Shown here one piece after another: positions 25,076-59,792 of a DNA stretch of 64,000 bases (position 1 is the first letter of the stretch; each line of letters starts with the position of its first letter). Below the pieces are notes generated by a model that did not search any database, was not told the DNA's origin, and was given only the letters and a program-made list of their open reading frames with translations. This stretch comes from a virus, in IMG/VR virus record IMGVR_UViG_3300020429_000529, positions 262,762-326,761 of that record; one strand, written 5' to 3'. The position numbers and the translations under genes were made by a program.

Positions 25076-25150
25076 CACTCCCAAGGGGATTCGAACCCCT
25101 ATCGCTTGGATGAGAACCAAGTATCCTGAACCAGATTAGACGATGGGAGC
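25076..25150 (-). tRNA. tRNA-Glu(CTC), U32/U38 loop variant
   Basis: GCTCCCA...; anticodon arm CTTGG-TTCTCAT-CCAAG; T-arm AGGGGTTCGAATCCCCT; 75 nt. Confidence 0.5.
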
Positions 25151-40499: not shown

Positions 40500-41561
40500 T
40501 TAGAAGCCGGTACTCTCGTTATTCGGATATCTTGTTCCGTAGATCGATGATCGCCAGTCTGTAGAGTATTCGGCCTTTTGTCGGGCATAGTTAATGTGGG
40601 GGATGTTGGTTTTTGCAAGCCTTGATCGATCGATTGCATCCCATGTATTGACAATCAAGTAACGAGTGATGATGCTGTTCGGAGCTTCTTCAAAGTCTCC
40701 ATCCGTAAACTTCTTGTGAGTCTCAGCAACAACATGCTTCAGTTTGTCGAAATCGGATCGAGCAACTGACTCTTCATCAGTGCCGTACTTCCAAAACTCT
40801 TCGCAAACCATGATACCATTGTGCCAGTTCCAGGCATTGAGAGTAAGAACAATCAACTCTCTGGTCTTTGTGTAGCGACACGAAATCTCGTAGGCATCGA
40901 TGACCCATCTCTTGTAATCGCCAAATGACCAAGTAACCTGTTCTTGCTTGAAGTTAGGATAGTCAGTGATCTCTTCGTGATTGCCGTTTTCCATTGCCTT
41001 CTGCGAAGCCGCTGTCTTCTCTCGACCGTAACTACTGGTCAGATCGCGAACAGTTCCGGTCTCGCCGAAACTCGTATCGCCATCGTATTCAAGATATTGC
41101 TTGTAGTATCCCTCAAGGCGACCCTTGGCAAAGACTTCGAGGTCTTTCCAGATCTTTTTGTCATCGCAGTATTCGCAGTCGAACTCTGCATTATCTCTGG
41201 GGTATGCTTTGCCGCTGTCATCGGGATCGGATAGGTTTGGATTATTCTCAGGTATGACAATGAACTTGATACCTATCGAGAACGTACTGTCCTCATCATG
41301 CTTGTAGAACTCTTGGCAACGGAAGTAGTATGTCGGGCATTGCCAGTCTCCGCCCGCTGAGCGAAGTTCGGCATAGACAACCGTCTTGGCATGGTTGCCG
41401 ATGTTGCCCATGTCAATCTCTTTGTCTGCGACAACATCGTCGTTCTCGGTATCAAAGCTGATGCCTGATCGCTCCATTTCGTCGCGCAACAAATCTCGCC
41501 AGAGACTCTGAATCTCTTCGTTATACTCGAAGTCTCGTTTTGCGATCTTGTACCAGTTCAA
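40500..41561 (-). CDS. MNWYK-family protein (353 aa)
   Basis: TTG start overlapping upstream stop; N-terminus MNWYKIAK. Confidence 0.5.
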   Translation of the reverse strand: MNWYKIAKRDFEYNEEIQSLWRDLLRDEMERSGISFDTENDDVVADKEIDMGNIGNHAKTVVYAELRSAGGDWQCPTYYFRCQEFYKHDEDSTFSIGIKFIVIPENNPNLSDPDDSGKAYPRDNAEFDCEYCDDKKIWKDLEVFAKGRLEGYYKQYLEYDGDTSFGETGTVRDLTSSYGREKTAASQKAMENGNHEEITDYPNFKQEQVTWSFGDYKRWVIDAYEISCRYTKTRELIVLTLNAWNWHNGIMVCEEFWKYGTDEESVARSDFDKLKHVVAETHKKFTDGDFEEAPNSIITRYLIVNTWDAIDRSRLAKTNIPHINYARQKAEYSTDWRSSIYGTRYPNNESTGF

Positions 41562-42085
41562 CGTAGCTTCCTATACCAGTTAGAACTCGTCTTTGGCTGA
41601 AGGCCTTCGTTGACCTCTTTACCTTGGTCTTGCCAGTCGATTTTCTCGCGGCTCTTGGATTCGGCAATCTCTTTGAACTCGTCGAAAGGAACTTCGGTCA
41701 TTCCGCCAAAGAAATCGCTTCGATCATAATGATGCAGGTATGCTGTTTTCGCAGCTTCAGCATCATCAAATCCAAGCATAACCTTCTCTTCGTCAAACTC
41801 GTGATCTTTGTACGGATTGACTTGGTGAACAACGTAAGCGTTCTTCGCTTCCCAGTTGGGGCCAAGGTAGACATCGAGCCCTTCCTCGTCGCCGCCCTTC
41901 TGAGAAAAGATGAAGCCGTAATCGTACTTCATCTTGGTTCGCCATTCATGACCATCAGGATCTACGCCGATACGTTCTGTACCAGCGGGATTCTCTACAT
42001 TGATGCGAAGTCCGTTGAAGTCTCGGATCATACCAAGATCTTCTTCGGGCACTTCTGCATGTTTGATGGTCTTATACCAGTTCAT
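41558..42085 (-). CDS. MNWYK-family protein (175 aa), also ends SNWYRKLR
   Basis: ATGA overlap with upstream stop; N-terminus MNWYKTIK. Confidence 0.5.
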   Translation of the reverse strand: MNWYKTIKHAEVPEEDLGMIRDFNGLRINVENPAGTERIGVDPDGHEWRTKMKYDYGFIFSQKGGDEEGLDVYLGPNWEAKNAYVVHQVNPYKDHEFDEEKVMLGFDDAEAAKTAYLHHYDRSDFFGGMTEVPFDEFKEIAESKSREKIDWQDQGKEVNEGLQPKTSSNWYRKLR

Positions 42086-42369
42086 AGTAATGTCTTCTTT
42101 GCCAGAGGCAGGTCAAATTTCCCAAGGTATCCGCCGTCCAAAGATACGTCGCACTTATCTGTTACGGCTCTGCCTGAATGATCTGCTGCATCAGTTTGAG
42201 CAAGAACATTGTGAAGAGCAACGGTCATGCCGCATCGACTGCATCTATTGGTCAGAAAAGCGGTCCATGGACCAAGCGAATGACCAAGATCTTTCGCTTT
42301 ACTCTCAGCAGCGGCAATGTGACTGTCTCTGACAGAATGGACTTCCTTGAGCTTGTGATACCAGTTCAT
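42082..42369 (-). CDS. MNWYK-family protein (95 aa)
   Basis: N-terminus MNWYHKLK; first gene of a three-gene coupled unit. Confidence 0.45.
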   Translation of the reverse strand: MNWYHKLKEVHSVRDSHIAAAESKAKDLGHSLGPWTAFLTNRCSRCGMTVALHNVLAQTDAADHSGRAVTDKCDVSLDGGYLGKFDLPLAKKTLL

Positions 42370-44045: not shown

Positions 44046-44807
44046 ATGATTTCGACCGAAGAACTACAAGAGACGCTGAATATCAAACTCGCCGAAGAAG
44101 TTGCAGCAGAAATCGCAAACACCTTTGAGACAAGGGCAAATAACGAGAACCTTGAGCTTGAGTTCCGAATTCCTGCGGGACAAGGGCGAATGGAAGGTAC
44201 TCTGGACGGTCCTAACACCTGGTTCAAGTTCGATGCCGAAGAAGGCACGACTCTTGCGAGGGTCAGAGACATCATTGTTGATGTGTTCTCAGAGGATTTC
44301 GATCTGAATGACGGTAAGGCGTCGGCCCGTATGGATGCCCGCCGCAACATCATTGATGGTTTCGTCGATCAGGTCAGAACCGTTCTCAACAGCGGTCAGT
44401 TCCATGAGGAGATTGCTGGCACGATCCGTCGAGTTTGTTTGCAGAACATCCCCGAAGAGATCCATCCGCTCGATGTCATTCGTTTCTTGGAGATCGAGAT
44501 CGGAGACGGCAATCCCGATGAGGTTCTGCTCATCATCGAAAAGAAAGCGCTCGTTGACTCTGCGACAGGGCAGTTCATAAACCCGCCTGTCTCCGTGCAA
44601 GAAGTTCTGCATGAAGAGCATCGAGAGACTGGTAAGGATTTCAATCAGATCATCGAAGAGAAGAAGGCAGCAGGCGACGAGCGATTCGACCTTGTTACAG
44701 GTGCCAGAACTGTACGGTATGCTTTCGAGGTCCATTGCGATATCGCCGTAGACTACTCTCTTGCGGAGCGATCTGATGTCCCAAAGCCTCGTATTGCCCA
44801 AACCTGA
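44046..44807 (+). CDS. hypothetical protein
   Basis: 253-aa ORF. Confidence 0.4.
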   Translation: MISTEELQETLNIKLAEEVAAEIANTFETRANNENLELEFRIPAGQGRMEGTLDGPNTWFKFDAEEGTTLARVRDIIVDVFSEDFDLNDGKASARMDARRNIIDGFVDQVRTVLNSGQFHEEIAGTIRRVCLQNIPEEIHPLDVIRFLEIEIGDGNPDEVLLIIEKKALVDSATGQFINPPVSVQEVLHEEHRETGKDFNQIIEEKKAAGDERFDLVTGARTVRYAFEVHCDIAVDYSLAERSDVPKPRIAQT

Positions 44808-45348
44808 AGAACTGAAGATTCGTCTTAGTCCGTATTCGACTCTGTACGAAAGAGCCCAAGAAGTACCCGTCTCCAAAGAGGGTTTCGAGGACGCTGATTC
44901 TACGCGAGCATACTGCGATCGACTTATTGCTCTTCTCGAATCAACAGGCAACAGAGGTATTGGCCTGGCTGCAAATCAGGCAGGACTATTGTTGCGCATC
45001 TTCATCTGTCGAGACAATCTCAACGATCCTGCTGCAAAAGATCGCCCTTGCCGAGCATATATCAACCCGAAGATTTTGAGCGGCTATGGGGGCAAGATCG
45101 CCGAAACAGAAGGATGCTTGAGTTTTCCAGGCGTCAATGGACCCGTCGAAAGATATCAGACAATCGATGCGGAATGGTACGATATTAATGGAGCGAAGCA
45201 TCATCAGCCTTTGACGGGTCTGCATGCACGGTGTTTCATCCATGAAGTCGATCATTTGGATGGGGTAAATATCCCCGACCGTTTCGACGATGCCGCCCTC
45301 AAGAGGAACAGAGCGGCCCTCAAGCGGCTCGGATATCGCCGCCACTGA
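44776..45348 (+). CDS. def: peptide deformylase
   Basis: GIGLAANQ, EGCLSFPG and HEVDHLDG motifs. Confidence 0.75.
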   Translation: MSQSLVLPKPEELKIRLSPYSTLYERAQEVPVSKEGFEDADSTRAYCDRLIALLESTGNRGIGLAANQAGLLLRIFICRDNLNDPAAKDRPCRAYINPKILSGYGGKIAETEGCLSFPGVNGPVERYQTIDAEWYDINGAKHHQPLTGLHARCFIHEVDHLDGVNIPDRFDDAALKRNRAALKRLGYRRH

Positions 45349-45460: not shown

Positions 45461-47356
45461 ATGCTGACGCGAGTGATTCTGGGGATCTTCGCCATGGTCC
45501 TGACGACCGTGGCGAACGTCGCCCATGCGCAAGACGGAAAGAGTTTCACCGATCAGTTGGGCCGAGCGCCCATCGGCGATGTCGAACAGGACGGGCCCTG
45601 GAATGTCGGCTACATTCTTTGGGGCGCAGACCTCATTACCTTCAACGCCAATGGCAACAACCTGACGACGCAGCGAGGTTCGCTCTTCGACGAGAAGGGA
45701 CTGAACATCAACCTGGTGTCTTGCGATGATCCCTACGAGGCGATCCGCAGGTACATGGCTGGCGATCTTCATGTCCTTCGCATGACGGGCACCATGGCGG
45801 CGCTCGCTGCGGATGTCATCAATGCCGACCCGAGAACGAGGACGCATTACCTCCTGCAGATGTCATGGAGCGGCGGCGACCACCTTGTGGTTCGAGGCAA
45901 CATCAAGACGGTCGGCGACATGAAGGGCAAGACCTTCGCTGTTCAGCGGGGCGGTCCTCATATCAAGCTGATGAACGATGCGCTCGCCACGGACGGGTTG
46001 ACCTGGGGCGATATCAATGTCGTTTGGGCCGACACCATCACGGGGCCTGGCAGCGCCGCTGAGTTGTTCAAGAATGACCCGAACATCGATGGCTGCACCG
46101 TTGTTACTCCCGACATGTTCGGTCTGACCGGCGGTTTGCAGGCGATCGGCGACGGTCGAGATGGAACGATCAACGGTTCGAGAGTTCTGGTCTCAACGGC
46201 TGAACTGTCCCGTTCGATCGCCGACTGCTTCTTCATTCGCGCCGATTTCTGGGACTCGAACCGAGCCGAGGTCGAGGCGTTCGCTGCCGCTTGGCTCAAG
46301 TCTGCCGAACAGATGGTTCAGATGTCTGCCGAGTACGACGATCGAGGCAATGCCGACTACGAGGATGTTCTTCGGTTTGCCGTCGAGACCTACGGCAAGG
46401 TAGCGCTTCCTAATGAAGCCGAAGCGCATGGTCTCTTTCTCGATGCTCGTATCGTTGGGTATCCTGGTCAGATCGTCTTCTTTGAAGAGTCGAACAACCC
46501 TGTCGGCTTCGACAAGTTCTCTGACGAAACGATCGGCATTGCTCGTACTCTCGGGTATGTTCGCAATCCCAACTCCTTCCTGCCCACTCCGCTGAACTGG
46601 GGCTCTCGTTCGTTCGTCGGCTACCTCGACAACACGAATGTTCAGCGCAAGGAGCGCTTCAACGAGGAAATCGTTGCGGAGATCGAGAACTTCGACCTGG
46701 GCGATTTCGACGATCGAACCATCACGAAGTTCGAGATCAACTTCGATGTTGGTCAGGCAGACTTCCCTTACGCTCGCTTCGCTTCATCGTTCGATCGAGT
46801 TCTTGAGCAGCTTCCTCGATACGGTTCTGCTGCGATCGTCATTCGAGGTCACGCTGACCCGACTGCTACGCTGCGAGACATCGTTCGAGCGGGCAAGGAA
46901 CTTGGCGTCATTACCAATCAGCAGGGCGAGGGAGCGGATGCGGTCTACACGATCAGCGGTCGTCCTGTTCGCATCACCAGCATCGAGAACCTGATTCAGC
47001 TTGTCGAAGGCGGCGCTTTCGACGGAGCGGGCGTTGCGAATCCTCGGGAGACCTTCTCTGCGGCTATTCGTCTTGCAAGCAACCGAGGCGAATCGGTTCG
47101 GCAGATTCTCATCGAAGAGGCCGAGAAGCGAGGCGTCTACCTTGATCCTTCTCAGATCCAGGTTCAGGGCGTCGGCATTCGAGAGCCGTTGTACGCTCGT
47201 CCTTCCGGTTCGGGTTCGATGCCCGCTCGCGGTACGCCCGAGTTCAATCAATGGATGGACGAGGCAAGGCGTCAGGCGGCTGCCAACCGTCGTATCGAGT
47301 TCCGTCTGATCCGAGTCTCTGCTGAAGCGCAGAACGCTCAGGACTTCGACTTCTGA
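45461..47356 (+). CDS. secreted NitT/TauT-type substrate-binding-like domain fused to C-terminal OmpA-like domain
   Basis: Signal peptide MLTRVILGIFAMVLTTVANVAHA; SBP-like core; C-terminus VIRGHADPTAT...NRGESVRQILI OmpA_C-like. Confidence 0.5.
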   Translation: MLTRVILGIFAMVLTTVANVAHAQDGKSFTDQLGRAPIGDVEQDGPWNVGYILWGADLITFNANGNNLTTQRGSLFDEKGLNINLVSCDDPYEAIRRYMAGDLHVLRMTGTMAALAADVINADPRTRTHYLLQMSWSGGDHLVVRGNIKTVGDMKGKTFAVQRGGPHIKLMNDALATDGLTWGDINVVWADTITGPGSAAELFKNDPNIDGCTVVTPDMFGLTGGLQAIGDGRDGTINGSRVLVSTAELSRSIADCFFIRADFWDSNRAEVEAFAAAWLKSAEQMVQMSAEYDDRGNADYEDVLRFAVETYGKVALPNEAEAHGLFLDARIVGYPGQIVFFEESNNPVGFDKFSDETIGIARTLGYVRNPNSFLPTPLNWGSRSFVGYLDNTNVQRKERFNEEIVAEIENFDLGDFDDRTITKFEINFDVGQADFPYARFASSFDRVLEQLPRYGSAAIVIRGHADPTATLRDIVRAGKELGVITNQQGEGADAVYTISGRPVRITSIENLIQLVEGGAFDGAGVANPRETFSAAIRLASNRGESVRQILIEEAEKRGVYLDPSQIQVQGVGIREPLYARPSGSGSMPARGTPEFNQWMDEARRQAAANRRIEFRLIRVSAEAQNAQDFDF

Positions 47357-47384
47357 TCGTTGGGCATCGAGCAATAGGAGACTC

Positions 47385-48311
47385 ATGATGAAGATCATCG
47401 CAACACTCATCGCGTTCATTCTCGCGCCGCTTTGTATGGCGCAAGATTCGACGCCCAACGCCTTCTACCAGGACAATGTTGTCGTCGTCTTCGACGCCAG
47501 CGGTTCCATGGAGTGGGAGTTCAAGGGCGGAGGCACCGGCGAAGACCGCATCACGGTCGCTCGCAGGTCTCTCAAGGCCGTTCTGCAGCAAATCCCTTCG
47601 ACCACGAATGTCGGCATTCTCGTCTTCGGCGGGCAGCGAGGATGGATCTACGAGCTTGGACCCGCTGATCCGCAGAAGCTCGCTGAGGCTGTCGATCGCA
47701 TCAGAACGGGCGGAGGTACGCCTCTCGGTTCGTACATCAAGCAAGGCTGCGATATGCTGCTCTCTCAAAGAGACCAGCAAAACAACAACGGCAACTACAA
47801 GCTGCTGATCGTAACGGACGGCGATGCTGATGATGGGCGAGAAGCTCGACTGATGAACGAGTACGCCCCCATGGTCAAGCAGCGGGGCATCGTTCTTGAT
47901 GTCATCGCTCTCGACTTCGAGGGAGGTAATCGCCATGCGTTGTCGCAGCATGCTTCGATCTATCGTCCGGCGAATGACCCGAATGCAATGACTCAGCAGT
48001 TGCAGGAGGCTTTTGCTGAGGTCGGCGGTACGGATACGGTTGCATTCGAGGAAGCCATTGAAGAGATTGCTTTCCTTGACAGCGACAGGGCTCTTGCGCT
48101 GATTCAGGGGTTTGCGAATCCTCCGAATCAACCGCTCGGACAGAATGCTATTCCGACTAATGCGAGACGACAGGTCAATGGTTCTTCTGCTCAGCAGTCT
48201 CAATCGCAGCAGACGCAGGGGGCCGCTCCGATCGGAGCTATCTTCGGAATCGGAGCCATTGTCGTTGTCGTCATCATTGTGATCGTCATCCTCTCTGCCA
48301 TGAGGTACTGA
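47385..48311 (+). CDS. secreted von Willebrand factor A domain protein with C-terminal TM anchor
   Basis: Signal peptide; VVVFDASGSM MIDAS; GGTPLG; C-terminal IGAIVVVVIIVIVIL helix. Confidence 0.6.
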   Translation: MMKIIATLIAFILAPLCMAQDSTPNAFYQDNVVVVFDASGSMEWEFKGGGTGEDRITVARRSLKAVLQQIPSTTNVGILVFGGQRGWIYELGPADPQKLAEAVDRIRTGGGTPLGSYIKQGCDMLLSQRDQQNNNGNYKLLIVTDGDADDGREARLMNEYAPMVKQRGIVLDVIALDFEGGNRHALSQHASIYRPANDPNAMTQQLQEAFAEVGGTDTVAFEEAIEEIAFLDSDRALALIQGFANPPNQPLGQNAIPTNARRQVNGSSAQQSQSQQTQGAAPIGAIFGIGAIVVVVIIVIVILSAMRY

Positions 48312-48312
48312 T

Positions 48313-49896
48313 ATGCCCAGCAAAGGACCAGCAAGAACGCTGGCGATTGCGGGCGTATGGATTGTCGTCATCCTCGCAATCGTCCTGACCGTCAAGTTCA
48401 TCGTCTTTCCATCGCAGAAGCAGGCGGCGATCGACGAGACCAGCGCATCAAGCCGCTACAAGGAAGAGGTTCGTTTCGGCCTCGACAACTTTTCGTCCTA
48501 CGCGACAATCCGTTCCGAAGATATGGCGAACGATCTCGGACAGTCGGGTATCCGCTTGGAGCTTGTCTCCGACAATGCCGACTACACCGATCGTCTGAAG
48601 CGCATCAAGAACGGCGATCTTGATATGGCGGCGTTTACTCTTGACGCCCTTATCCTCGCTACGATCGAGTTGGGCGAAGCTCCCGCTGTTGCGGTCGCCA
48701 TGATCGATGCGACGGTCGGCGCTGATGGGATCGTTGCATGGGAGTCATCTGTCGCCAGTCTTGACGACCTGAATACGGCTGATGCGAGAATCCTCGGTAC
48801 GCCCCTGTCTCCGAGCGAAACCGTCAGCCGTATCACCAAATCGCACTTTCTGCCCAACATGCCAGATAACAACTGGTTTCTTGAGGCAAATGGCGCGCAA
48901 GATGTTTTCAACAGAATGCGACAGTATCGAGGAAAGCGGGTCGCATTTGCTCTCTGGGAGCCTTGGCTATCGAAGGCTGTTGCTGATCCTGGTATTCATG
49001 TCCTGATTGACAGCGGCAACATGCCCGATGCCATTGTTGATGTCATCGTTGTTCGCCGTCAGTTCCTTATCTCGAATCCGAGCGCTACAAGAGCGGTAGT
49101 CGAATCGTACCTGAGATCAGCTTACTCGCATCAGTCTGATATGCCCGCTCTTCTCATGGCCGATGCCAAGCAGCATGCAGATGAAATAACTCTCGACCAG
49201 GCTAAGTCGATTGTCAAGGGCATTCTTTGGAAGCGAACGATTGAGAACTACGCTCATTTCGGCTTGCTGCCAAGGCATGAGGCTGGCGGTCTGACCCATA
49301 TAGAGGACATGATCGCCAATATCACTCGGGTTCTGGTAGATACTGGCGCTATCTCTGCGGACAACATTGTCTATGGCAGAGAGAACACGCTCTACAACGA
49401 CAGCATCTTGCAGGCGATGCGAGAGAACAACTTCCATCCCGGCGATCGCAGTACCGTTGTCCAGAACTCGGGCGGTCGAGCAACCCTTGGAGACCTGGCA
49501 ACGGGCGCTCGTCCTGATCTTGGAAGCGTTCGAGGCGTTGAACAACTGCCGCCATTGTCCGAAGAGGAATGGAACTCCCTTATCGCTGTTGGAAGCCTCA
49601 AGGTCGAAGAACTCGATTTCCGTCGAGGAAGTTCTGACCTGAGCGGTTCGAGCAAGCGAGAGCTTCGGACGTTGGCGACGACGCTTGAAAACTTCCCTCG
49701 GTACTACTTGCTCGTCATCGGTAAGTCTCAGGGCGAGGATTCGGAATCGAATCGAACGTTTGCCCAAGAAAGAGCGCAGTCTGCGCTGGACTACCTTACC
49801 GATCTCGGCGTCAACCCCAATCGTCTCCGAGCGATCGGAACCGTAACCAGCGATTCATCTTCAGTTCAGTTCGTCGTAGGACAAAGGTCGTACTAA
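48313..49896 (+). CDS. membrane-anchored SBP-like domain fused to C-terminal OmpA-like domain (paralog of 45461..47356)
   Basis: N-terminal TM; C-terminus YYLLVIGKSQGEDSESNRTFAQERAQSALDYL OmpA_C-like. Confidence 0.5.
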   Translation: MPSKGPARTLAIAGVWIVVILAIVLTVKFIVFPSQKQAAIDETSASSRYKEEVRFGLDNFSSYATIRSEDMANDLGQSGIRLELVSDNADYTDRLKRIKNGDLDMAAFTLDALILATIELGEAPAVAVAMIDATVGADGIVAWESSVASLDDLNTADARILGTPLSPSETVSRITKSHFLPNMPDNNWFLEANGAQDVFNRMRQYRGKRVAFALWEPWLSKAVADPGIHVLIDSGNMPDAIVDVIVVRRQFLISNPSATRAVVESYLRSAYSHQSDMPALLMADAKQHADEITLDQAKSIVKGILWKRTIENYAHFGLLPRHEAGGLTHIEDMIANITRVLVDTGAISADNIVYGRENTLYNDSILQAMRENNFHPGDRSTVVQNSGGRATLGDLATGARPDLGSVRGVEQLPPLSEEEWNSLIAVGSLKVEELDFRRGSSDLSGSSKRELRTLATTLENFPRYYLLVIGKSQGEDSESNRTFAQERAQSALDYLTDLGVNPNRLRAIGTVTSDSSSVQFVVGQRSY

Positions 49897-50669
49897 TGCC
49901 TCGTCGAGAAGCCTTCAAGCAAAGAGTCATGATTGAGACAGCGGCATCGCTGCCGGTCCTGATTCCGACTGTTCTCGGAGTCACGGCGGGTATCGCTGGT
50001 ATCATCACGACTCCCCTTGTCGCCGCAGGCGGAGGCATTCTCGTCCTGATCGGCGGTGGTATCTGGGCGACTCGGATGATGAGCCCTCAAAGCGATATCC
50101 ATGAGAAGACCTGGAAAAAGATGGCAGAGGAAGAAGAGCGCAAAGAACAGGCTCGACTCGATGCTCTAAGCGAACATCTTGAACAGGACGGCGACCATCG
50201 AACAGAAAGCGCTCTTTCGGATATGCGGCAACTGATCCATTCGCTTAAGACTTCTGAGTTGTCAGCGAATGTCGTTCAGTCAGAAGGAATTGTTGACAAG
50301 GCGGAGCGCCTGTTCGAGGCTTCGGTAGACATGCTCGAAAAGACCCTTGGCGTCAATGCGACGATCTCGGGTTTGAGCAGAGGAAGCTCGGCTCGGGCGA
50401 GACTGGAAGAACAGCGCGAGCATATGGTAACGGAGGTACTGACCAATGTAGACCGACTAAGCAGCATCGTTGCCAAGATGCAGACCCTCGGAGCAACAGG
50501 AGACTTTGATTCTGCTGAGGGTCTTCGCGCTGAACTTGAATCGGATTTGGAAATCGTCGCGGAAGTCGAAGAACAGACTCGGCGCTGGGCGCGTGGCGAT
50601 TTTAGCCCCACATCGGGTATAGATTACGATGCCCTCGCCGAGGAAGGAGAACTCCATGGGACTCATTAG
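49896..50669 (+). CDS. membrane protein with cytoplasmic coiled-coil
   Basis: Gly-rich TM hairpin then heptad-rich region. Confidence 0.4.
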   Translation: MPRREAFKQRVMIETAASLPVLIPTVLGVTAGIAGIITTPLVAAGGGILVLIGGGIWATRMMSPQSDIHEKTWKKMAEEEERKEQARLDALSEHLEQDGDHRTESALSDMRQLIHSLKTSELSANVVQSEGIVDKAERLFEASVDMLEKTLGVNATISGLSRGSSARARLEEQREHMVTEVLTNVDRLSSIVAKMQTLGATGDFDSAEGLRAELESDLEIVAEVEEQTRRWARGDFSPTSGIDYDALAEEGELHGTH

Positions 50670-51495
50670 AGCATTTGGACGACTGTGGCGAGCGATTATT
50701 CTTCGTATCTCTGGTAACGCAGAGAACAAGGCTGATCGCATGATGGAAAACGCAAGCGCCATCCGTCAGGAATATCGAGAGATCAGCACCGAACTGCAGG
50801 GCGAACTCACCACCTTCCGAGATTCTGTTGGGCGCATGCTCGCTCAGAAAAAGTCGTTCGAGAAGAAGTCTGACCAGCATGCGACTGAAGCTGAGCGTTT
50901 CGGCAGAATCATGCGAGGCGCTCAGGCGAAGGCCAAGGCGTATGCCGACGAGAAGGGGCTTACGAAGGAACAGGCGCAGTCTGATCCCCAGTTCGTTACG
51001 CTCATGTCGGCGTATCAGGACGCCAAGACCAGTTTCGACCAGGAAACTGCGGCTGCCACAAACTACGCCAACGACGCTGCTGACATGCAGAAGAATCTCG
51101 ATTCGTACATGATCCAACTGCAGCAGAAGCAGCGCATGGTCGAGCAGGTCGCCCGAGAAGGTTCGACGGCGGAGGCTCGGGCGCAAGCGGCGCAGGAGAA
51201 GCAGCGTCTCGCCGAACTGCAGGCGGGAATGTCTTCGCAGAGCAGCACGACAGATCGCCTCAACAAGATCCGAGGCATCGTCGATCAGGTCGAGAGCCGA
51301 GCGGAAGTTACCGCCGAACTGGCGGGCACCAACACGACGGCGCTCGATGCGGAACTCGAACACTACGGCGAGCATGGCGCTGCCGCAGATCAGTTCATGG
51401 GGGACATCTTCGGCACTGACGGAGCCGACGATACCTCAAGGGCTGAGCATATCGAGATCGGGGGCGGAAGCGGCGACGGTAAGCCGAACGCCTGA
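50656..51495 (+). CDS. PspA/IM30/Vipp1 family protein (paralog 2)
   Basis: GAAGGAGAACTCC-ATG; MGLIRAFGRLWRAII N-terminus and coiled-coil. Confidence 0.65.
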   Translation: MGLIRAFGRLWRAIILRISGNAENKADRMMENASAIRQEYREISTELQGELTTFRDSVGRMLAQKKSFEKKSDQHATEAERFGRIMRGAQAKAKAYADEKGLTKEQAQSDPQFVTLMSAYQDAKTSFDQETAAATNYANDAADMQKNLDSYMIQLQQKQRMVEQVAREGSTAEARAQAAQEKQRLAELQAGMSSQSSTTDRLNKIRGIVDQVESRAEVTAELAGTNTTALDAELEHYGEHGAAADQFMGDIFGTDGADDTSRAEHIEIGGGSGDGKPNA

Positions 51496-51556: not shown

Positions 51557-52741
51557 ATGAGACTGTCAAGCATCATCATCGGGACCATTGCAGCCGCCGT
51601 TATCGGCTGCGGCGGTCAGGTCGCTGCCAGCACGAACGAGAGCGCCGATTACCCCGTCGTTACTCACCTGTGGAGCGAGTACCCGTCCTGGTCTGTCTTC
51701 GGCGTTGCGGGCAACCGCGCCGTCGCTCCTGACGAGGGCATCACCTTTGTCGGCAACGGCAAGAGCATCACCATCGAGGCTGGCGAGAGGTATGTCCTCG
51801 TCAATCCGAAGACCGGCGGGTCGATGGGCGTCCTCGAAGATCTCTATGAGATCGACTACAACTTCAGTCAGAAGGATTACGACCCGTGCATGCAGTTGTA
51901 CGGCAACGGCAATGCCGATTCCGTCTGCCTGACCAACATCGACATCCTTCCTTCTTCTCTCAGTCGCCCGTCTGTCATGATCCTCGCTACTTCGACGAGC
52001 GACAGCGCTGATGCGTTCATCGTCGAAGAGAGTCTGGTCGGCGAAAACCTTCTCGCAACTCTCGACAACATCCGCAAGGCGGGCATCGAGGTTCGAGGTC
52101 TCGACAAGTCGGTTTCCGACTTCACTCTGTTCCGCGCCATCGAGGAGGCGGGCGGCAATTGGGAAGACTACGCTGATCTCTGGTCCTACGCTGATCCCGC
52201 CGTCGCTGCTACCGGCATGCAGCAGCGCGATGACAAGTTCCAGGCGATCGTCGTTTGGAATCCCTTCAAGATGGAGACGCTTGCTCGTCGAGGCGACAGC
52301 GTTCGGGTCGTCGTCGATTCTGGCATCATCCCCAATGAGATCATCGACAGCGTATTCATGTCTCAGGCGCTTCTCGATCAGCCCCACGGCGAGCGAGCGG
52401 CGCAGGGCATCATCCATTCGTTCTACGCTGTCTGCGACCGCATGAACGCCTCGACGACAAGGGATGACACTCTCATCGCTATCGGCGAGCGGTTCAGCAA
52501 TCTCAGCCTTGGCGCTATGCGTCAGGTCGTTCGCGAGACCGTCTTCTACGATACCCCGGCGAAGAGCTTCGGCCTCATGACCGATCCGAACTTCCCCGCC
52601 ACCATGGATCGAGTTACGCAGTTCTCGCTCGACCGCGATGCCACGGACCAGCGAGCTACGGTCAGCTTCGGCAATGAGCGAGGCTCCAACCTCCGCATCG
52701 ACGCTTCGTTCATCGAGGCGTACCAGCAGAGCCAGCCCTGA
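51557..52741 (+). CDS. ABC transporter substrate-binding lipoprotein (NitT/TauT-like)
   Basis: GAAGGAG SD; lipobox AVIGC; SBP-like. Confidence 0.5.
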   Translation: MRLSSIIIGTIAAAVIGCGGQVAASTNESADYPVVTHLWSEYPSWSVFGVAGNRAVAPDEGITFVGNGKSITIEAGERYVLVNPKTGGSMGVLEDLYEIDYNFSQKDYDPCMQLYGNGNADSVCLTNIDILPSSLSRPSVMILATSTSDSADAFIVEESLVGENLLATLDNIRKAGIEVRGLDKSVSDFTLFRAIEEAGGNWEDYADLWSYADPAVAATGMQQRDDKFQAIVVWNPFKMETLARRGDSVRVVVDSGIIPNEIIDSVFMSQALLDQPHGERAAQGIIHSFYAVCDRMNASTTRDDTLIAIGERFSNLSLGAMRQVVRETVFYDTPAKSFGLMTDPNFPATMDRVTQFSLDRDATDQRATVSFGNERGSNLRIDASFIEAYQQSQP

Positions 52742-52810
52742 TCTGCGGCCACTCGCGTCGGCTTCGGCTGATGCACTCGCTGCGCCTCGCCCCCAGCGGG
52801 GCGCAGTTTT

Positions 52811-53632
52811 ATGATACGAGGCAGTATTTCAAAACGACGAAGCCTCTTCTTTAGCCTCCTCGCTGTGGCGATCATTGCGATCGGGTATGTTTCCCTATCG
52901 TGGATCATGAACAGTCGAGCCGAGGCAAGGGGAGAGTCCCTAAGCACGATGCCCAACGTCCAACAGTTGTGGGGAGGCTTCAAGGAAGTCTTTACGCCGC
53001 ACTACAGGTCGGGCGAGATTTGGGCCAAGCAAGACGCCATCGCTACGGGCACTCGCTTTGGCCTCGGTCTGTTGGCAACGATTGTTGGATCGATTTCGAT
53101 CGGTCTGATCTCTGGTTGCTTCCGAAGCATCGATGCTTTCTTTACTCCGATCCTTGTATGGATCGCCAAGATTCCGCCTACGGCTGCGCTACCAGTATTT
53201 TTCGCGCTGCTCGGAGCCGACAACACCATGTTCATCGGCCTCGCCATCTTCGGAACCGTTACTGGTTTGTATATGACGAGCCGCAACTCGGTCCTCAACA
53301 TCCCCGAACAGTTGATCCACAAGTCATACATCCTTGGCATCGATCATACAACGGCTGTTACGACGATTGCCGCACGAATGAGCCTCCCGCATATCATCGA
53401 AGGCATCCGTCTCTCCATCGGTCCTCTCATGGTCTATCTGATCGCTGCTGAAGCGCTGAGCGCTGATGTCGGCTTCGGATACACCATTCGAGTCCAGGCT
53501 CGCATCAATGACATGAAGGTCGTTTATCCTTACCTGTTGATGCTCTCGATGTTCGGGCTCTTTGTTGACTGGATCTTTGTTTGGCTCAAGCGGCTTCTCT
53601 GCTCATGGGCTATTGAGAAGCAGGAGAAATAA
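52811..53632 (+). CDS. ABC transporter permease
   Basis: Six TM segments, binding-protein-dependent permease-like core. Confidence 0.6.
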   Translation: MIRGSISKRRSLFFSLLAVAIIAIGYVSLSWIMNSRAEARGESLSTMPNVQQLWGGFKEVFTPHYRSGEIWAKQDAIATGTRFGLGLLATIVGSISIGLISGCFRSIDAFFTPILVWIAKIPPTAALPVFFALLGADNTMFIGLAIFGTVTGLYMTSRNSVLNIPEQLIHKSYILGIDHTTAVTTIAARMSLPHIIEGIRLSIGPLMVYLIAAEALSADVGFGYTIRVQARINDMKVVYPYLLMLSMFGLFVDWIFVWLKRLLCSWAIEKQEK

Positions 53633-53634
53633 TC

Positions 53635-54615
53635 ATGCCAAACAGAAAGCCCATTCTAAGCATCAAGAACCTCAGCCAATGGTTCGGCGATGTTCATGTT
53701 CTTGACAACCTGAACATTGACATCTATCCCGGAGAAATTGTTGCCCTTGTTGGACCAAGCGGTTGCGGCAAGTCTACGGTCCTCAACTGTATCACGGGGA
53801 CGTTACGGCCTAAGCGCGGCGAGGTCGTCCTTAGAGAGGCTGACGGCTCTCTCGTAAGCGTCAAGGGGCCGAGCCGAAGCCTTGGGCGAGTCTATCAGAA
53901 CTACTCGCTGTACCCCTTCTGGTCCGCTCGCAAGAATGTCGCCGCTGGACCGATGTTCAGAGAATCCAATCCCATCACCCGATGGACAGGGCATCCTTCC
54001 CTCAAAACCGGATGGAGAGGCGGTATTTGGTGGTGGTGGAAGGCCCGCAAGCGGCACCTTCTTCAAGCCGACCAGGAACTTGCTCGTCTTGGCCTTGGGG
54101 GACATGAGCGAAAGCTACCCAAACAACTCTCAGGCGGGCAGCAACAGCGAGTCGCAATTGCTCAAGCGCTTATCAACAAGCCAAGGGTTCTCCTGATGGA
54201 TGAGCCTTTCGGCGCTCTTGATGAAGCGACCCGAGAAAGGGAGCAGAAGTTTCTTCTGTCTCTCTACCTTGAGAACAAACGGGCTATTGCCGCTGGTCAA
54301 GAGCCTCCGAATACTGTCATCATCGTGACGCATGAGTTGAGCGAGGCAATCTATGTCGGCTCTCGCATCATTGGACTCAGCCAATGGAGAGATTCGAACG
54401 GAGACGGAGAGAGAACCGAGCATCCGAACGGTGCTGCCGTTCTACTCGACGAACCGTGTCCCATCTTTGATCCTCATGACACAAAGGACAAAGATGCTTT
54501 TATTGACCTGAGTCATCGCATTCTCGATGAGGTTTACGAGCCCAAGGAAGCGAACATGGTCAAGGATCTGCAAGAGACTCGTAAGCAGGTCAGCAGGATG
54601 GATGCCGAGTCATGA
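53635..54615 (+). CDS. ABC transporter ATP-binding protein
   Basis: Walker A GPSGCGKST; signature LSGGQQQR; Walker B VLLMDEP. Confidence 0.75.
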   Translation: MPNRKPILSIKNLSQWFGDVHVLDNLNIDIYPGEIVALVGPSGCGKSTVLNCITGTLRPKRGEVVLREADGSLVSVKGPSRSLGRVYQNYSLYPFWSARKNVAAGPMFRESNPITRWTGHPSLKTGWRGGIWWWWKARKRHLLQADQELARLGLGGHERKLPKQLSGGQQQRVAIAQALINKPRVLLMDEPFGALDEATREREQKFLLSLYLENKRAIAAGQEPPNTVIIVTHELSEAIYVGSRIIGLSQWRDSNGDGERTEHPNGAAVLLDEPCPIFDPHDTKDKDAFIDLSHRILDEVYEPKEANMVKDLQETRKQVSRMDAES

Positions 54616-54977
54616 GACCCGATGAAGTCGAAGTCGGTCAAGAGGTATGGATCAAGAACCCATGGGTTGATTCCATGGGCAACAACCCCATGCTTCCAAT
54701 CCTGAAAGGAAAGATCGAACAGATCAATGAAGCCAACGCCAGAAGAGCGTGTTGGGTATCAGGCGTCAACAGGTGGCTCTATCCCGAAGCCCTGCATCGA
54801 ACAAGGGAAGAAGCGGATAGCGTGCCTGCGGCAACTGTACCTGCGTATTCTTTCGTAGCAACAGTCAACGCCAATGTTGATAATGAAAAGTTGACTGATG
54901 CGGAGTTCAGAGAGTTCGTTCGCAATTCGCTACCGCTGGTCAGAGAGCTATTCGTGGAGCCTCTGTCGTCGGTATAA
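54612..54977 (+). CDS. hypothetical protein
   Basis: 121-aa ORF overlapping the upstream stop. Confidence 0.4.
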   Translation: MRPDEVEVGQEVWIKNPWVDSMGNNPMLPILKGKIEQINEANARRACWVSGVNRWLYPEALHRTREEADSVPAATVPAYSFVATVNANVDNEKLTDAEFREFVRNSLPLVRELFVEPLSSV

Positions 54978-57429: not shown

Positions 57430-58110
57430 GTGTACGACCTATTCTTTGACGGATACGCTTCAGTTTTCTCTGTACCAGCAATGCTGGCAACGTTTTTCTT
57501 GGGCATCAAGTTCGTCTTGATGATGACGGGCGGCTCGGAAGACGGTAGCGAAATTGATGCGGATGGCGTTGATATCGATGTTGACGCCGACGTTGATGTA
57601 GATGCTGGCGATATCGATGCGGATGCGGCTGAGATCGATCATGACTCGGCTGAGTTTACCTCCAAGAGCCACAGCCACAACAAACAGGCTCGTCCATCGG
57701 GTTTCAAGCTGCTGACGACCATGACGCTTGCCGCTGCCATTATGGGAGGCGGCTTTGCTGGTCTCGCAACTTTCCGCTCAACAGGAGATAACCTGTTTGC
57801 GGCAATCATCGCTGCTGGCATCTTCGGGTTCATCTTCATGTTTACCTTCGCATGGCTCATGCGATTCATCTTTACCTTGAGCGAGCATGGAACCATCACG
57901 GTTGGCGATGCTTTGTATGAGACTGCTGTTGTCTACATTTCTGTACCTGGCAAAAGAGGCGGCAGAGGCGAAGTCAAGGTTCTCGTAAACGGACGTATTC
58001 GGTATTTCCGCGCCGAGACTGACGAAGAAACAATCCCTTCCGGTGAGGAAGTATACATCATCGATGACCAGCCTGCGGATGGACTGGTTATTGTTGCCCG
58101 CAAGGACTGA
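57430..58110 (+). CDS. NfeD/YqiJ-like membrane protein with OB-fold C-terminus and Asp-rich linker
   Basis: TM-acidic repeat-TM-OB fold; immediately upstream of a flotillin gene as in yqiJK. Confidence 0.6.
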   Translation: MYDLFFDGYASVFSVPAMLATFFLGIKFVLMMTGGSEDGSEIDADGVDIDVDADVDVDAGDIDADAAEIDHDSAEFTSKSHSHNKQARPSGFKLLTTMTLAAAIMGGGFAGLATFRSTGDNLFAAIIAAGIFGFIFMFTFAWLMRFIFTLSEHGTITVGDALYETAVVYISVPGKRGGRGEVKVLVNGRIRYFRAETDEETIPSGEEVYIIDDQPADGLVIVARKD

Positions 58111-58124
58111 GCAAGGAGCAAGCT

Positions 58125-59792
58125 GTGGACAAAATAATGTCTGGACCCATTCTGTGGCTGATAGTTGGAGGAGCCTTCATCGGCCTCTTCATCTTTGTGA
58201 TGATGGTCATCAAATCGCTCTACAAGCGATGCCCCTCCAACAAGGTGCTGGTCATCTATGGTAAAGTCGGCGGCGACTCTGCCAAGTGCATGCACGGCGG
58301 CGGTTCGATGATTATCCCGCTGATTCAAGACTATGCCTACCTGAGTCTTGAACCGCTCGTCATCGACATCCCTCTTGAAGGCGCGCTCTCGCTCAACAAC
58401 ATCCGAGTCAATGTTCCGTCAACCTTCACGGTCGGTATCTCAACCGAACCGACCCTCATGGCGAACGCTGCCGAGCGTCTGCTTGGTCTGAACCAGAAGC
58501 AGATTCAGGATCAGGCGCAGGACATCATTCTCGGTCAGCTTCGTCTCGTGATCGCTACCTTGTCGATTGAAGAGATCAACAAGGACCGCGAGAAGTTCAT
58601 GAATCTCGTCAACGAGAACGTGACGCAAGAGATCAACAAGGTCGGTCTCGAACTTATCAACGTCAACGTTCGAGACATCACCGACGAAAGCGGGTACATT
58701 ACCGCTATCGGTCAGCGCGCTGCCGCCGAAGCTGTCAACAAGGCCCGAGTCGAAGTCGCTGAGCAGGAGCGAGACGGCGAGATGGGCGTTGCCAAGGCGA
58801 GCCGAGAGAGGGCCGTCAAGGTCGCTGAGGAAGATTCGCTCGCTGAACAGGGCCGTAAGACCGCTGAGCAGTCGCAGCGTATTCGGCTTGCTCAGCTTGA
58901 GGCTGAGGCTGTTTCTGGCGAAGCCGAATCTCAGCGGACCCGAGAGATTGCCGTTGCTCAGAGAGAGGCTGAGACGGCTTCTGCGATGGCCGAGGCTGCT
59001 CAGTCTCGTCGTATCAAGATCGCTACCGCTGAGGCGACTGCAAGACAGGGCGAAAACGAAAGCTCTGCTCTGGTCGCCAAGTCTGACGCCGAGCTTGCCA
59101 AGACGCGAGCCGAATCGTCGCAGACTGCTGAAACGGCGCAAGCCTCGGCTCGTCGAGCGATTCTCGAAGCCGAGGCTGAGGCCGAGACTGCTCGACTCCA
59201 CAAGGAACTGGTCGTTCCCGAAGAGGCCGAGAAGAGGCGAATCGAGATTGAGGCGGAAGCCGAAGCGGAACGAGAGCGTCGTCGAGCGAAGGGCGAGGCC
59301 GATGCGATCTTCGCTCGCTACGATGCCGAAGCTCGCGGTACGCAGGCGGTGCTTGAGGCGAAGGCCGAGGGCTATCGCAAGATGATGGAGGCTTGCGCTG
59401 CGAATCCTGACATCGCTCCGACGCTGCTGCTTATCGAGCAGTTGCCGACGCTTGTTGATGCTCAGGTCCAGGCGATCTCGAACCTCAAGATCGACAAGAT
59501 CACGGTTTGGGAAGGCGGCGGCGGAGCCAACGGTCAGACCTCGACCGCCAACTTCCTCCGCAACATTGTTCAGGTTCTTCCTCCGCTAACCGATCTCGCC
59601 CGTCAGGCGGGGATCAAGCTGCCTGACGCGCTCGGTCAGATCGAGGAGATGGCGAATATGAGCATCAAGAACCCGCAGGTTGTTGATGTTGATGCCATCG
59701 ACGAAGATGAAGAAACCGGAGAAGCCGTTTCGCCGGGTTCGACGGGCAACGCGAAACTTGCTGCTACTGTCATCGGCGGCAAGGACGACTAA
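58125..59792 (+). CDS. SPFH/Band-7 flotillin-like protein (YqiK-like)
   Basis: N-terminal TM, SPFH core, long EA-rich coiled coil. Confidence 0.7.
   Translation: MDKIMSGPILWLIVGGAFIGLFIFVMMVIKSLYKRCPSNKVLVIYGKVGGDSAKCMHGGGSMIIPLIQDYAYLSLEPLVIDIPLEGALSLNNIRVNVPSTFTVGISTEPTLMANAAERLLGLNQKQIQDQAQDIILGQLRLVIATLSIEEINKDREKFMNLVNENVTQEINKVGLELINVNVRDITDESGYITAIGQRAAAEAVNKARVEVAEQERDGEMGVAKASRERAVKVAEEDSLAEQGRKTAEQSQRIRLAQLEAEAVSGEAESQRTREIAVAQREAETASAMAEAAQSRRIKIATAEATARQGENESSALVAKSDAELAKTRAESSQTAETAQASARRAILEAEAEAETARLHKELVVPEEAEKRRIEIEAEAEAERERRRAKGEADAIFARYDAEARGTQAVLEAKAEGYRKMMEACAANPDIAPTLLLIEQLPTLVDAQVQAISNLKIDKITVWEGGGGANGQTSTANFLRNIVQVLPPLTDLARQAGIKLPDALGQIEEMANMSIKNPQVVDVDAIDEDEETGEAVSPGSTGNAKLAATVIGGKDD

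Follow-up and report, generated by a model that had tools for sequence, protein, structure and literature searches.

Membrane sensors, among them PspB/C and LiaI, trigger PspA systems (PMC7619361). More elaborate operons have been described by comparative genomics only: PspA, TM-Snf7 and AAA+ genes are extended by those for an ABC ATPase, a permease and a substrate-binding protein (SBP)+OmpA protein, as exemplified by OGG56892.1 of Cand. Handelsmanbacteria, and membrane remodelling linked to solute transport has been proposed (Ravi et al., 2024, mSystems, PMC11237479; section 18, Text S2.2, Table S3). Here, we describe a related operon of eight genes, A to H, in a 64,000-nucleotide stretch of DNA (hereafter, the window) that looks like part of a ~500-kb marine huge-phage genome. 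We consider it somewhat more probable than otherwise (roughly 0.55) that the operon encodes a solute-uptake module coupled to wall anchoring and membrane maintenance, which would be an auxiliary envelope module of the phage.

The eight genes form one tightly packed envelope operon, of which A, B and C are the periplasmic front end (Table 1). All eight are co-directional, with gaps of -14 to +69 nt between the window ORFs: the D start and the C stop share 1 nt, and the first 14 nt of E lie within the end of D. The gene coordinates of A, B and C match ENA gene calls on a 99%-identical contig. From its sequence pattern, the hairpin between F and G may serve as an attenuator or terminator inside the operon; searches of the window region and of eight bacterial loci yielded no riboswitch.

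Table 1. Features of the operon and its surroundings (positions in the window).
Feature	Position	Strand	Description
gene A	45461..47356	+	signal peptide ...VAHA/QD (slash, cleavage); NitT/TauT-type SBP-like domain; C-terminal OmpA-like domain with two insertions
gene B	47385..48311	+	secreted vWA protein with full MIDAS (DASGS...T...D), low-complexity linker and C-terminal TM anchor
gene C	48313..49896	+	N-terminal TM anchor, NitT/TauT-type SBP-like domain, ~45-residue flexible linker, OmpA-like domain
gene D	49896..50669	+	two N-terminal TM helices, then ~190-aa helical cytoplasmic domain; conserved DGDPRTE motif
gene E	50656..51495	+	divergent PspA/IM30/Vipp1-like protein (ESCRT-III superfamily), cytoplasmic
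gene F	51557..52741	+	lipoprotein (...VIG/C); NitT/TauT-type SBP; presumed cognate SBP of the importer
candidate attenuator/terminator	52779..52807	+	GC-rich 12-bp hairpin then T-run, between F and G; pattern match only
gene G	52811..53632	+	ABC permease, SsuC/TauC/NtrB type
gene H	53635..54615	+	ABC ATPase; variable insertion after Q-loop region; conserved C-terminal extension
NfeD-like/flotillin gene pair	57430..59792		downstream of the operon

Like those of Ravi et al., the present operon combines a gene of the PspA family with a helical partner anchored by TM segments, an ABC ATPase and permease, and a signal-peptide SBP-OmpA fusion. The proposed logic is also common to both: the OmpA domain attaches to the wall, the SBP captures the solute to be transported, and transport and membrane remodelling are coupled. 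Most bacterial copies of the present operon end with a ninth gene, K, which follows H in 47 loci and encodes a classical AAA+ ATPase, a further likeness to the Ravi operons with their two-domain classical AAA+ protein. Several differences are evident. The SBP is of the PBPb/SBP_bac_3 type there and of the NitT/TauT (TauA/SsuA) type here, where two SBP-OmpA proteins are accompanied by a third SBP, a lipoprotein; a vWA protein with a MIDAS is a fixed addition; the genes are arranged in another order; no Snf7 homology is detectable in D; and the window copy, in its huge-phage-like genome, has no AAA+ ATPase gene K in the window.

A and C share a TauA/SsuA-type SBP fold followed by a C-terminal OmpA-like domain, as the sequence-only reading had claimed, with the same gene boundaries. 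C (527 aa) scores 39.4 bits against Pfam OmpA (cut-off 27.2) and 25.4 bits against NMT1_2 (cut-off 24.7). Its AF2 model (pLDDT 90.5) comprises a TM helix (6-43), an SBP lobe pair (51-~372) and an OmpA-like domain (424-524). The top Foldseek match is TauA 6ssy (E 3.5e-14, TMt 0.76), and the family profile matches OmpA-like structures at E 6e-14. In its topology of TM helix, periplasmic spacer and C-terminal OmpA-like domain, C resembles MotB among the TM-anchored OmpA-like proteins (MotB/MotS, YiaD, Pal-type), but its spacer is a complete SBP fold and no MotA-like partner is present. Canonical OmpA-like domains bind diaminopimelate via a conserved Asp. The domain of C retains the conserved Arg but, in contrast to MotB-type anchors, not the Asp, and thus its wall binding is uncertain. 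That of A, which matches structures 3td3, MotS and OprF-C, keeps the Asp/Arg pair of such anchors: D466 and R542, the canonical peptidoglycan-binding residues, are each conserved in 29 of 29 sequences. The C-terminal tail of A (...SDFDF) is disordered in the AF2 model, yet invariant.

The protein between them, B (308 aa), had been read as a vWA/MIDAS protein with a C-terminal anchor, and this was borne out: it scores 43.6 bits against Pfam VWA, its MIDAS is complete (DxSxS, T, D) and conserved among the 84 sequences aligned, and a signal peptide and a hydrophobic anchor are apparent at its N- and C-termini, respectively. The fusion architecture itself is no rarity. The earlier claim had presupposed that this architecture is not a commonplace of annotated, ordinary operons; relatives occur in 345 species genomes and in 230 clusters at 50% identity with E≤1e-30, under generic labels such as 'ABC transporter substrate-binding protein', 'OmpA family protein' and 'phosphate ABC transporter substrate-binding/OmpA family protein', but not in 'ordinary' characterised operons.

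At least seven bacterial phyla share the gene order. Related loci are found in Verrucomicrobiota, Planctomycetota, Kiritimatiellae, Poribacteria, Hydrogenedentota, Omnitrophota and Sumerlaeota, and the order is kept in most of 90 related loci, including Pirellulaceae SH449, 8 IMG/VR contigs and 80 bacterial loci. Per gene, the number of the 90 loci fetched with a match was 83 for A, 88 for B, 90 for C, 67 for D, 53 for E, 66 for F, 62 for G and 61 for H. Truncation at a contig end accounts for most of the gaps, and in some loci D and E have also diverged beyond the reach of tblastn. A Pirellulaceae clade has neither E nor K, which indicates that the A-B-C/F-G-H core can do without PspA.

F-G-H is a NitT/TauT-type ABC importer, with the standard SBP-permease-ATPase set of TauABC, SsuABC and NrtABCD/CmpABCD. 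F scores 82.7 bits against TIGR03427, below the cut-off, and its fold matches SsuA (5.8e-7) and TauA (3.8e-6). TIGR03427 is the best curated family for A and C as well, and all three share the TauA/SsuA fold; each falls far under every curated equivalog cut-off. The operon differs from the known NitT/TauT importers in this respect, in the OmpA-like domains of two SBP-like proteins and in its four non-transport genes. The transporter had been taken for a separate system, but F, G and H sit in the same conserved operon as A-B-C. Consequently, the view that A, B and C form a sensing or anchoring complex rather than a transport component keeps its domain calls, two SBP/OmpA fusions around a MIDAS vWA protein, and loses its non-transport role, which is unsupported because most of the 90 loci have F-G-H in one operon and in synteny with A-B-C. 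An envelope anchoring or sensing assembly of A, B and C is plausible.

Is the operon then an ordinary nutrient importer with several SBPs? A and C would be extra tethered SBPs that pass the same N- or S-containing solute to G/H, and the vWA and PspA-like genes would be incidental neighbours. The fold and best family common to A, C and F fit such an importer, as do the hairpin 3' of F, typical of importer operons, the Pirellulaceae variants and the AF2 model of C, in which the SBP domain begins ~8 residues past the TM helix, as in membrane-anchored SBPs of Gram-positive bacteria and archaea. However, B and D hold fixed positions in 88 and 67 of the 90 loci, and E and the highly conserved AAA+ ATPase are also fixed in most lineages. 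Moreover, A is better conserved than the cognate SBP F (mean column identity, 70% against 49%), its OmpA residues and C-terminal tail among the conserved parts, and a shuttle SBP tied to the wall is hard to square with docking to the permease. We therefore regard a plain importer as rather unlikely.

D and E, which lie between C and F, were absent from the sequence-only reading. The family profile of E matches Vipp1/PspA structures colinearly (E 7e-6) and 11 of 20 E orthologs match PF04012 (best 5e-8), while the window E alone reached no PspA threshold; these matches identify E as a divergent PspA/IM30-like protein. For D, no family was detected and there is no detectable PspA or Snf7 homology, but its place in the gene order is the one taken by the 'TM+Snf7-like' partner in related operons. 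Judged from sequence, D and E would tie the operon to ESCRT-III-type membrane maintenance. As in the classical Psp/Lia modules (PspA-PspB/C of E. coli, LiaI-LiaH of B. subtilis and PspA with the SPFH protein YdjI), the PspA-family gene adjoins a possible membrane recruiter. Unlike those modules, the present operon lacks a PspF-, PspB/C- or LiaFSR-type regulator, its E family is very divergent, and it joins a PspA-like gene to periplasmic wall-binding proteins and an importer.

The module could instead be a periplasmic sensor or anchor complex, as first suggested: A, B and C would not feed the transporter but sense a solute or the state of the wall and alert the PspA module to envelope stress, and F-G-H would only tune the level of the signal molecule. 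The peptidoglycan-binding residues of A are in keeping with this, the TM anchors of B and C and the two-TM D could relay information across the membrane, and membrane sensors trigger PspA systems elsewhere (PMC7619361). Nevertheless, domain and family searches revealed no recognisable signalling output domain (kinase, GGDEF, anti-sigma) in A-H, the transporter is strictly co-inherited, and a sigma-factor gene downstream of H is confined to the phage lineage (the window and locus L003) and not found in bacterial loci. Such a complex is accordingly an unlikely explanation.

How might a coupled uptake and anchoring module work? A small periplasmic solute would be imported by F-G-H. C would be anchored in the inner membrane, its binding domain held at the surface of that membrane and its long linker letting the OmpA-like domain reach the wall, while A would be held on peptidoglycan through its Asp/Arg residues. 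B may bridge the assembly via its MIDAS site, for which the invariant, disordered ...DFDF C-terminus of A is a purely conjectural candidate ligand. On the cytoplasmic face, by analogy with LiaI and LiaH or PspB/C and PspA, D may recruit E, which would stabilise or remodel the membrane at that site, and in bacteria K may recycle the E polymer. If so, the phage operon would keep uptake and membrane integrity going in the infected host.

Capsid, portal and terminase genes were not found within the 64-kb window; with no virion gene there, the term phage rests on context and relatives. The element has been assembled repeatedly from Tara Oceans data as ~498-502-kb contigs, and ~0.5-Mb Tara contigs encode a protein with 100% identity to D. 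The window carries 12 tRNAs in two arrays and a majority of ORFans, with PHROG matches to NAMPT, HNH, methyltransferase and endonuclease and also a Ro60 gene. A 488-kb IMG/VR genome is collinear with about 20 kb of it, and a published huge phage, the 595-kb 'uncultured phage' LR756511.1, carries the operon with both D and E. It might be supposed that the window comes from a bacterial chromosome, giant plasmid or other extrachromosomal element, the operon being in its native cellular context: besides lacking virion genes, it derives from a Tara sample of the 0.22-3 um cellular size fraction, and several operon-bearing IMG/VR contigs have a bacterial-type AAA+ gene and could be misclassified. 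This seems distinctly improbable in view of the tRNA arrays, the ORFans and phage-typical PHROG matches, the repeated assemblies, the collinearity, the deposited phage and the long branch of the window operon, which is 43-44% identical to every bacterial copy. The host is probably from the Verrucomicrobiota/Planctomycetota group.

Within the phage lineage, the operon has been passed on at 30-60% protein identity. Membrane and surface proteins of huge phages have been suggested to alter host susceptibility to other phages (Al-Shayeb et al., 2020, PMC7162821), and by extension the envelope proteins expressed here might alter the cell surface or periplasm and exclude superinfecting phages. Such a conflict role is highly improbable, since all eight genes, those for the cytoplasmic ATPase and the PspA-like protein among them, are retained with family-invariant residues and inherited in the lineage, and no defence-related signal emerged from domain and family searches.

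SPFH proteins are linked to the operon system. ESCRT-III-superfamily protein, AAA ATPase, SPFH and periplasmic-type SBP genes also recur together in archaeal ESCRT loci with ProX-type SBP genes (Makarova et al., 2024, PMC10936438), but these use Vps4 and bona fide ESCRT-III and have no common operon structure with ours; the homology seen here is at the superfamily level. As in the classical Psp/Lia modules, SPFH/flotillin and NfeD-like genes are associated with the PspA-family gene: on a Poribacteria chromosome (locus L070), two Band-7 genes and an NfeD-like gene are inserted between D and E, and the window has its NfeD-like/flotillin pair at a distance of 2.8 kb downstream of H.

Eight co-directional genes, designated A to H, are packed into an operon in the window: two proteins in which a substrate-binding protein (SBP) is combined with an OmpA-like domain (A and C), a vWA protein between them (B), a helical protein with two transmembrane (TM) helices (D), a PspA/IM30-like protein (E), and an SBP, a permease and an ATPase of the NitT/TauT type (F, G and H). 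The sequence-only reading had placed A, B and C exactly where three co-directional ORFs are found, with boundaries that agree with those of the genes called on an ENA contig that is 99% identical, and had regarded the ABC transporter as separate from them. The separation does not hold: F-G-H is packed in the same operon as A-B-C, and the order is conserved in relatives. Its interpretation was partly right; the features are real, rightly placed and non-random.

Features of the window and of its eight-gene operon (positions in the window)
Feature	Position	Strand	Description	Junction with next gene
Ro60/TROVE protein	9214-10866	-	with vWA domain; about 0.6 kb from tRNA array 1	
tRNA array 1	11490-13133		Asp x2, Met x3, Pro x3	
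NAMPT	15226-16788	-		
GluR0-like protein	17017-18186	-	SBP_bac_3 ligand-binding domain, ligand-gated/potassium-channel pore	
tRNA array 2	24744-25150		Glu x4	
Glutamine-synthetase-like protein	36164-37363	-		
Three consecutive overlapping genes	40500-41561, 41558-42085, 42082-42369	-		
Peptide deformylase	44761-45348	+	directly upstream of operon; syntenic in L003	
A	45461-47356	+	631 aa; SBP, OmpA-like	28 nt gap
B	47385-48311	+	308 aa; vWA	1 nt gap
C	48313-49896	+	527 aa; SBP, OmpA-like	1 nt overlap
D	49896-50669	+	two-TM helical protein	14 nt overlap
E	50656-51495	+	PspA/IM30-like	61 nt gap
F	51557-52741	+	lipoprotein SBP; profile matches SsuA, TauA	69 nt gap, strong hairpin inside
Hairpin and T-run	52779-52807		12-bp, GC-rich, between F and G	
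G		+	permease	2 nt gap
H	53635-54615	+	ATPase	
ORF	54612-54977	+	121 aa; overlaps H stop	
Sigma-70-family gene	54999-56219	+	regions 2 and 4	
NfeD-like membrane protein	57430-58110			
Flotillin	58125-59792		Band_7+Flot	
Cytidylyltransferase-like protein	61150-61659	+		

The same A-H order is found in the complete chromosome of Pirellulaceae bacterium SH449, in 8 IMG/VR contigs and in 80 loci drawn from 345 species genomes encoding a C relative. In a tblastn search of the 90 loci fetched at that stage, matches keep order and strand across loci, with A present in 83, B in 88, C in 90, D in 67, E in 53, F in 66, G in 62 and H in 61; genes are missing mostly because contig ends cut the loci, and in some loci D and E have also diverged too far to be picked up by tblastn. 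The operon is carried by Verrucomicrobiota (Limisphaerales, Pedosphaera), Planctomycetota (Pirellulales, Phycisphaerae, Sedimentisphaerales), Kiritimatiellae, Poribacteria, Hydrogenedentota, Omnitrophota, Sumerlaeota and Victivallales. A sigma-70 promoter scan gave no more matches than shuffled sequence. The hairpin between F and G is a possible intra-operon attenuator, which would raise expression of A-F over that of G-H.

Both A and C had been read as fusions, and both adopt the type II periplasmic-binding-protein fold, with two lobes that can be superposed on TauA/SsuA, together with an OmpA-like (PF00691) domain recognized by its beta-alpha-beta-alpha-beta-beta fold or by profile match. 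C passes both Pfam cut-offs, scoring 39.4 bits for OmpA against 27.2 and, narrowly, 25.4 bits for NMT1_2 against 24.7. A confident AlphaFold2 (AF2) model of C, built from 33 homologs (pLDDT 90.5), agrees: a TM helix (residues 6-43) is followed by a two-lobed binding domain (51 to about 372), a low-confidence linker and the OmpA-like domain (424-524), and the closest structures are TauA, SsuA, ThiY, Thi5 and CmpA/NrtA. A falls under the Pfam cut-offs for both domains when searched singly (NMT1, 19 against 20.5 bits); PF09084 is found on nearly all A homologs among the matches listed. Every NCBIfam equivalog cut-off is widely missed by A, C and F, for which TIGR03427 is the top common curated match, far under its cut-off in all three. 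In pairwise BLAST among these proteins similarity is seen for C and F alone (E 2e-6), and the kinship of A to C and F is seen by fold and profile only. A has the highest mean column identity among the periplasmic proteins, 70%, compared with 49% for F and 44% for C. Database searches gave 461 proteins for A at E<=0.001; for C, 1.84 billion representatives were searched, and the family comprises 230 clusters (50% identity, E<=1e-30).

Conserved motifs bear on what these domains may contact. The OmpA motif of the A family reads R-G-H-[S/A]-D-P-T ... L-S-x-x-R-A ... N-x-R-V-E-F, and D466 and R542 are each kept in 29 of 29 aligned sequences; we take them to be the Asp/Arg pair contacting diaminopimelate in canonical OmpA domains (D271/R286 of A. 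baumannii OmpA; GHTD, LSxxRA). In the C family the arginine, R487, is kept in 33 of 33, and the aspartate position is variable (S, R, A or T, and Q in the window copy), so that wall binding by C is less certain than that by A. B scores 43.6 bits against Pfam VWA (cut-off 23.8), and a signal peptide and a C-terminal hydrophobic anchor are visible in its sequence; its MIDAS (DxSxS...T...D) is complete, with DASGS, GGGTPLG and TDG(D/E)A kept in an alignment of 84 sequences. The C-terminal tail of A, S-D-F-D-F-COOH, is disordered in the AF2 model and near-invariant (D, F and D in 29 of 29, the final F in 27 of 29). We propose this tail as a candidate acidic ligand of the B MIDAS.

What is transported by F-G-H? 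An assignment of F as a urea/guanidine binder, from its best match to TIGR03427, was dropped (82.7 bits against a cut-off of 333.9). As a further clue to the ligand, riboswitches were sought with Rfam: none was found in window 44-57.5 kb (E<=1), and none reached the gathering threshold in 8 bacterial loci. In H, the Q-loop region is followed by an insertion with little conservation (residues about 112-140), which contains a WWWW run in the window copy; a C-terminal extension, GLSQ...RTE...GA..YD.P.P.F, is kept across the family. The operon could be a plain importer with multiple SBPs, A, C and F; however, B and D are strictly co-inherited with the transporter, which argues against a plain importer, and we regard this explanation as unlikely.

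For D and E of the window, single-sequence searches of Pfam and NCBIfam gave nothing usable, and family alignments were required. Window E alone matches no family, though it looks PspA-like by eye. A profile of 20 E orthologs matches Vipp1/PspA structures (E 7e-6) in two colinear segments, and Pfam PspA_IM30 (PF04012) is matched by 11 of the 20 (best 5.4e-8). E is therefore a divergent member of the PspA/IM30 family, of the ESCRT-III superfamily, and may polymerise on membranes and protect them. D has a positively charged N-terminus, two N-terminal TM helices and a helical domain of about 190 aa predicted to be cytoplasmic; no homology to any family, the E family included, was detected. A relationship of D to PspA/Snf7 was sought and not detected: hhalign against the E family gave 0.6% probability, and the PDB profile search and Pfam (20 members) were negative. 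D is thus not called an ESCRT-III protein, although its position and its architecture, TM helices plus a helical domain, fit the membrane-anchored Snf7-like partner in the operons of Ravi et al.

In most bacterial copies the operon has a ninth gene, K. Clustering of flanking ORFs revealed a highly conserved protein of about 607 aa directly 3' of H in 47 loci (for example, L064:14830-16653), with 36-95% identity to the query, a value that exceeds 50% for the majority of the bacterial loci. Its AAA domain is of the classical kind, and by sequence it is nearest to VAT/Cdc48/p97, with Vps4 more distant. The 64-kb window does not contain K, and neither do the parts fetched of the 488-kb IMG/VR contig L003 (about 5 kb past H) and of the phage genome LR756511.1. 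A Pirellulaceae clade lacks both E and K. A reduced seven-gene form, A-B-C-D-F-G-H, without E and the AAA+ ATPase, is seen in four Pirellulaceae/Planctomycetales loci (L001, L059, L068, L077), and the periplasmic/transport core can therefore exist without both.

Bacterial operons in which PspA and membrane-anchored Snf7-like genes occur with a two-domain AAA+ ATPase have been described (Ravi et al., 2024; PMC11237479), and it was suggested that the OmpA domain acts on peptidoglycan and the binding domain on the transported solute, tying remodelling to transport (PMC11237479). The window copy likewise unites a PspA family protein, an ABC ATPase, a permease and an SBP-OmpA fusion in one operon, and contains no two-domain classical AAA+ ATPase. 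In contrast to those operons, which have PBPb-type binding domains, A-H has TauA-type ones; its SBPs number three, of which two are SBP-OmpA proteins, a vWA protein is a fixed component, and the genes are ordered differently. The association of archaeal ESCRT genes with ProX-type SBP and SPFH proteins (Makarova et al., 2024; PMC10936438) is analogous. A-H is a variant of an operon class so far described only computationally; no experimental work on any operon member was found in the literature. Beyond earlier descriptions, there are a vWA protein and a second SBP-OmpA protein, the operon is widespread in the PVC group, bacterial copies have a ninth AAA+ gene, and phage-like genomes of about 0.5 Mb recurrently carry the operon without this ATPase.

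These features can be arranged into a model. F-G-H would import a small solute. C would be anchored in the inner membrane as a binding protein, its linker letting the OmpA-like domain reach the wall; A would be bound to the wall, and B may bridge the assembly via its MIDAS site. At the cytoplasmic side D might recruit the PspA-like E, which in bacterial copies would be recycled by the AAA+ ATPase. Uptake would in this way be coupled to the maintenance or remodelling of the local membrane. The sequence-only reading had proposed a sensing or anchoring complex; no signalling output domain is present, which argues against this, and we hold it to be distinctly doubtful.

In a more far-reaching reading, to which, all its parts taken jointly, we give a probability of roughly 0.12, the operon would encode an ESCRT-III-like machine, specific to the PVC group and allied bacteria, that spans the envelope and remodels membranes. 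A and C, wall-anchored and ligand-binding, and the MIDAS bridge of B would mark a periplasmic site, where a polymer of E, anchored by D and recycled by the Cdc48/VAT-like AAA+ protein, would bend or repair the inner membrane; this would be a cargo-coupled invagination, vesicle or tether system, not a simple importer. If so, several huge-phage lineages would have captured the machine without its AAA+ ATPase, reshaping the host envelope in long infections. PspA/Vipp1 proteins are now recognized as bacterial ESCRT-III relatives, and several questions have been raised. How are they positioned? What triggers them? Do they use an AAA+ recycler? A Vps4-like partner is apparently absent in bacteria according to a 2025 review (PMC7619361). 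The operon joins a PspA-like protein and usually a classical AAA+ ATPase with SBPs that are putatively wall-anchored, a vWA protein with a MIDAS, and an ABC importer, in fixed order in hundreds of genomes, and offers a concrete, testable system that includes the complete genome of a named strain, SH449.

The NfeD-like/flotillin gene pair lies 2.8 kb downstream of H. In a Poribacteria chromosome (L070:10470-13861) D and E are separated by an insertion of an NfeD-like gene, related to the window copy at E 1e-4, and a pair of Band-7 genes. Cooperation of PspA with flotillin is reported for B. subtilis (PMC8581546). The sigma-70-family gene is also found downstream of H in L003 and is absent there in the bacterial loci. 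In phage, the module, followed by this phage-lineage sigma factor and the flotillin pair, might keep the infected cell's envelope and uptake in working order; a role in superinfection exclusion seems a very long shot. Immediately 3' of the sigma factor, a gene without known family (about 56104-56628, +) is matched at 41% identity by a homolog on a 436-kb IMG/VR contig (L005, about 11556-11957), where this homolog is inserted between C and D of the operon, suggesting a loose link of the gene to the operon.

The window appears to represent 64 kb of an element of about 500 kb, and it is likely to derive from a huge phage. Indirect support comes from its tRNA arrays, collinearity with L003 and the presence of the operon in LR756511.1. 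ARAGORN found 12 tRNA genes in two arrays, and Rfam gave two more tRNA-like matches missed by ARAGORN, one of 128 nt at 11800-11927, which may be interrupted, and one at 24906-24980. Between about 39.3 and 61.1 kb the window and L003 are collinear, their proteins being 31-62% identical; the operon occupies the corresponding place in L003, and D- and E-type ORFs are recognizable there. A protein with 100% identity to D of the window occurs on 24 contigs, of which many are 0.2-1 Mb long; Tara Oceans station 128 (DCM, 0.22-3 um) is represented among them, as is CEWJ01144027.1, an NCBI contig of 498,513 bp. A 98-99%-identical relative is on an ENA contig of 502,461 bp. When the 11.5-kb region was compared with the phages of GenBank by Megablast, nothing matched; a protein search reached LR756511.1 (595 kb, 'uncultured phage'), which has A-B-C-D-E-F-G-H amid unrelated surroundings. 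Among about 35 other window ORFs scanned with PHROG and Pfam there was no virion hallmark, and a huge phage is therefore likely, not proven; a non-phage origin appears improbable.

In a neighbor-joining tree of A+C+H, the window has a long branch, and its identity to every bacterial copy is 43-44%, which points to old capture and retention rather than recent transfer. With the copies thus equally distant, no bacterium stands out as a recent source of the phage operon. Genes resembling pspA have already been noted in phages, namely gut Jug phages (PMC12880540). Repeated carriage of the operon in phage genomes of about 0.5 Mb, with the sigma factor and the flotillin pair, suggests multi-gene control of host envelope and uptake; huge phages would thus use whole multi-gene envelope modules, not only single auxiliary genes.

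The majority of the window ORFs have no family. Besides NAMPT, the Ro60/TROVE protein, the glutamine-synthetase-like protein, peptide deformylase and the sigma-70-type factor, the window encodes an HNH endonuclease, a DNA methyltransferase and an endonuclease. In Rfam, no Y-RNA-like family was above threshold. The GluR0-like gene is an ion channel carried by a putative phage. The three overlapping genes share the N-terminal motif MNWYK/H, and the middle one has an inorganic pyrophosphatase (InPase, PF18823) domain.
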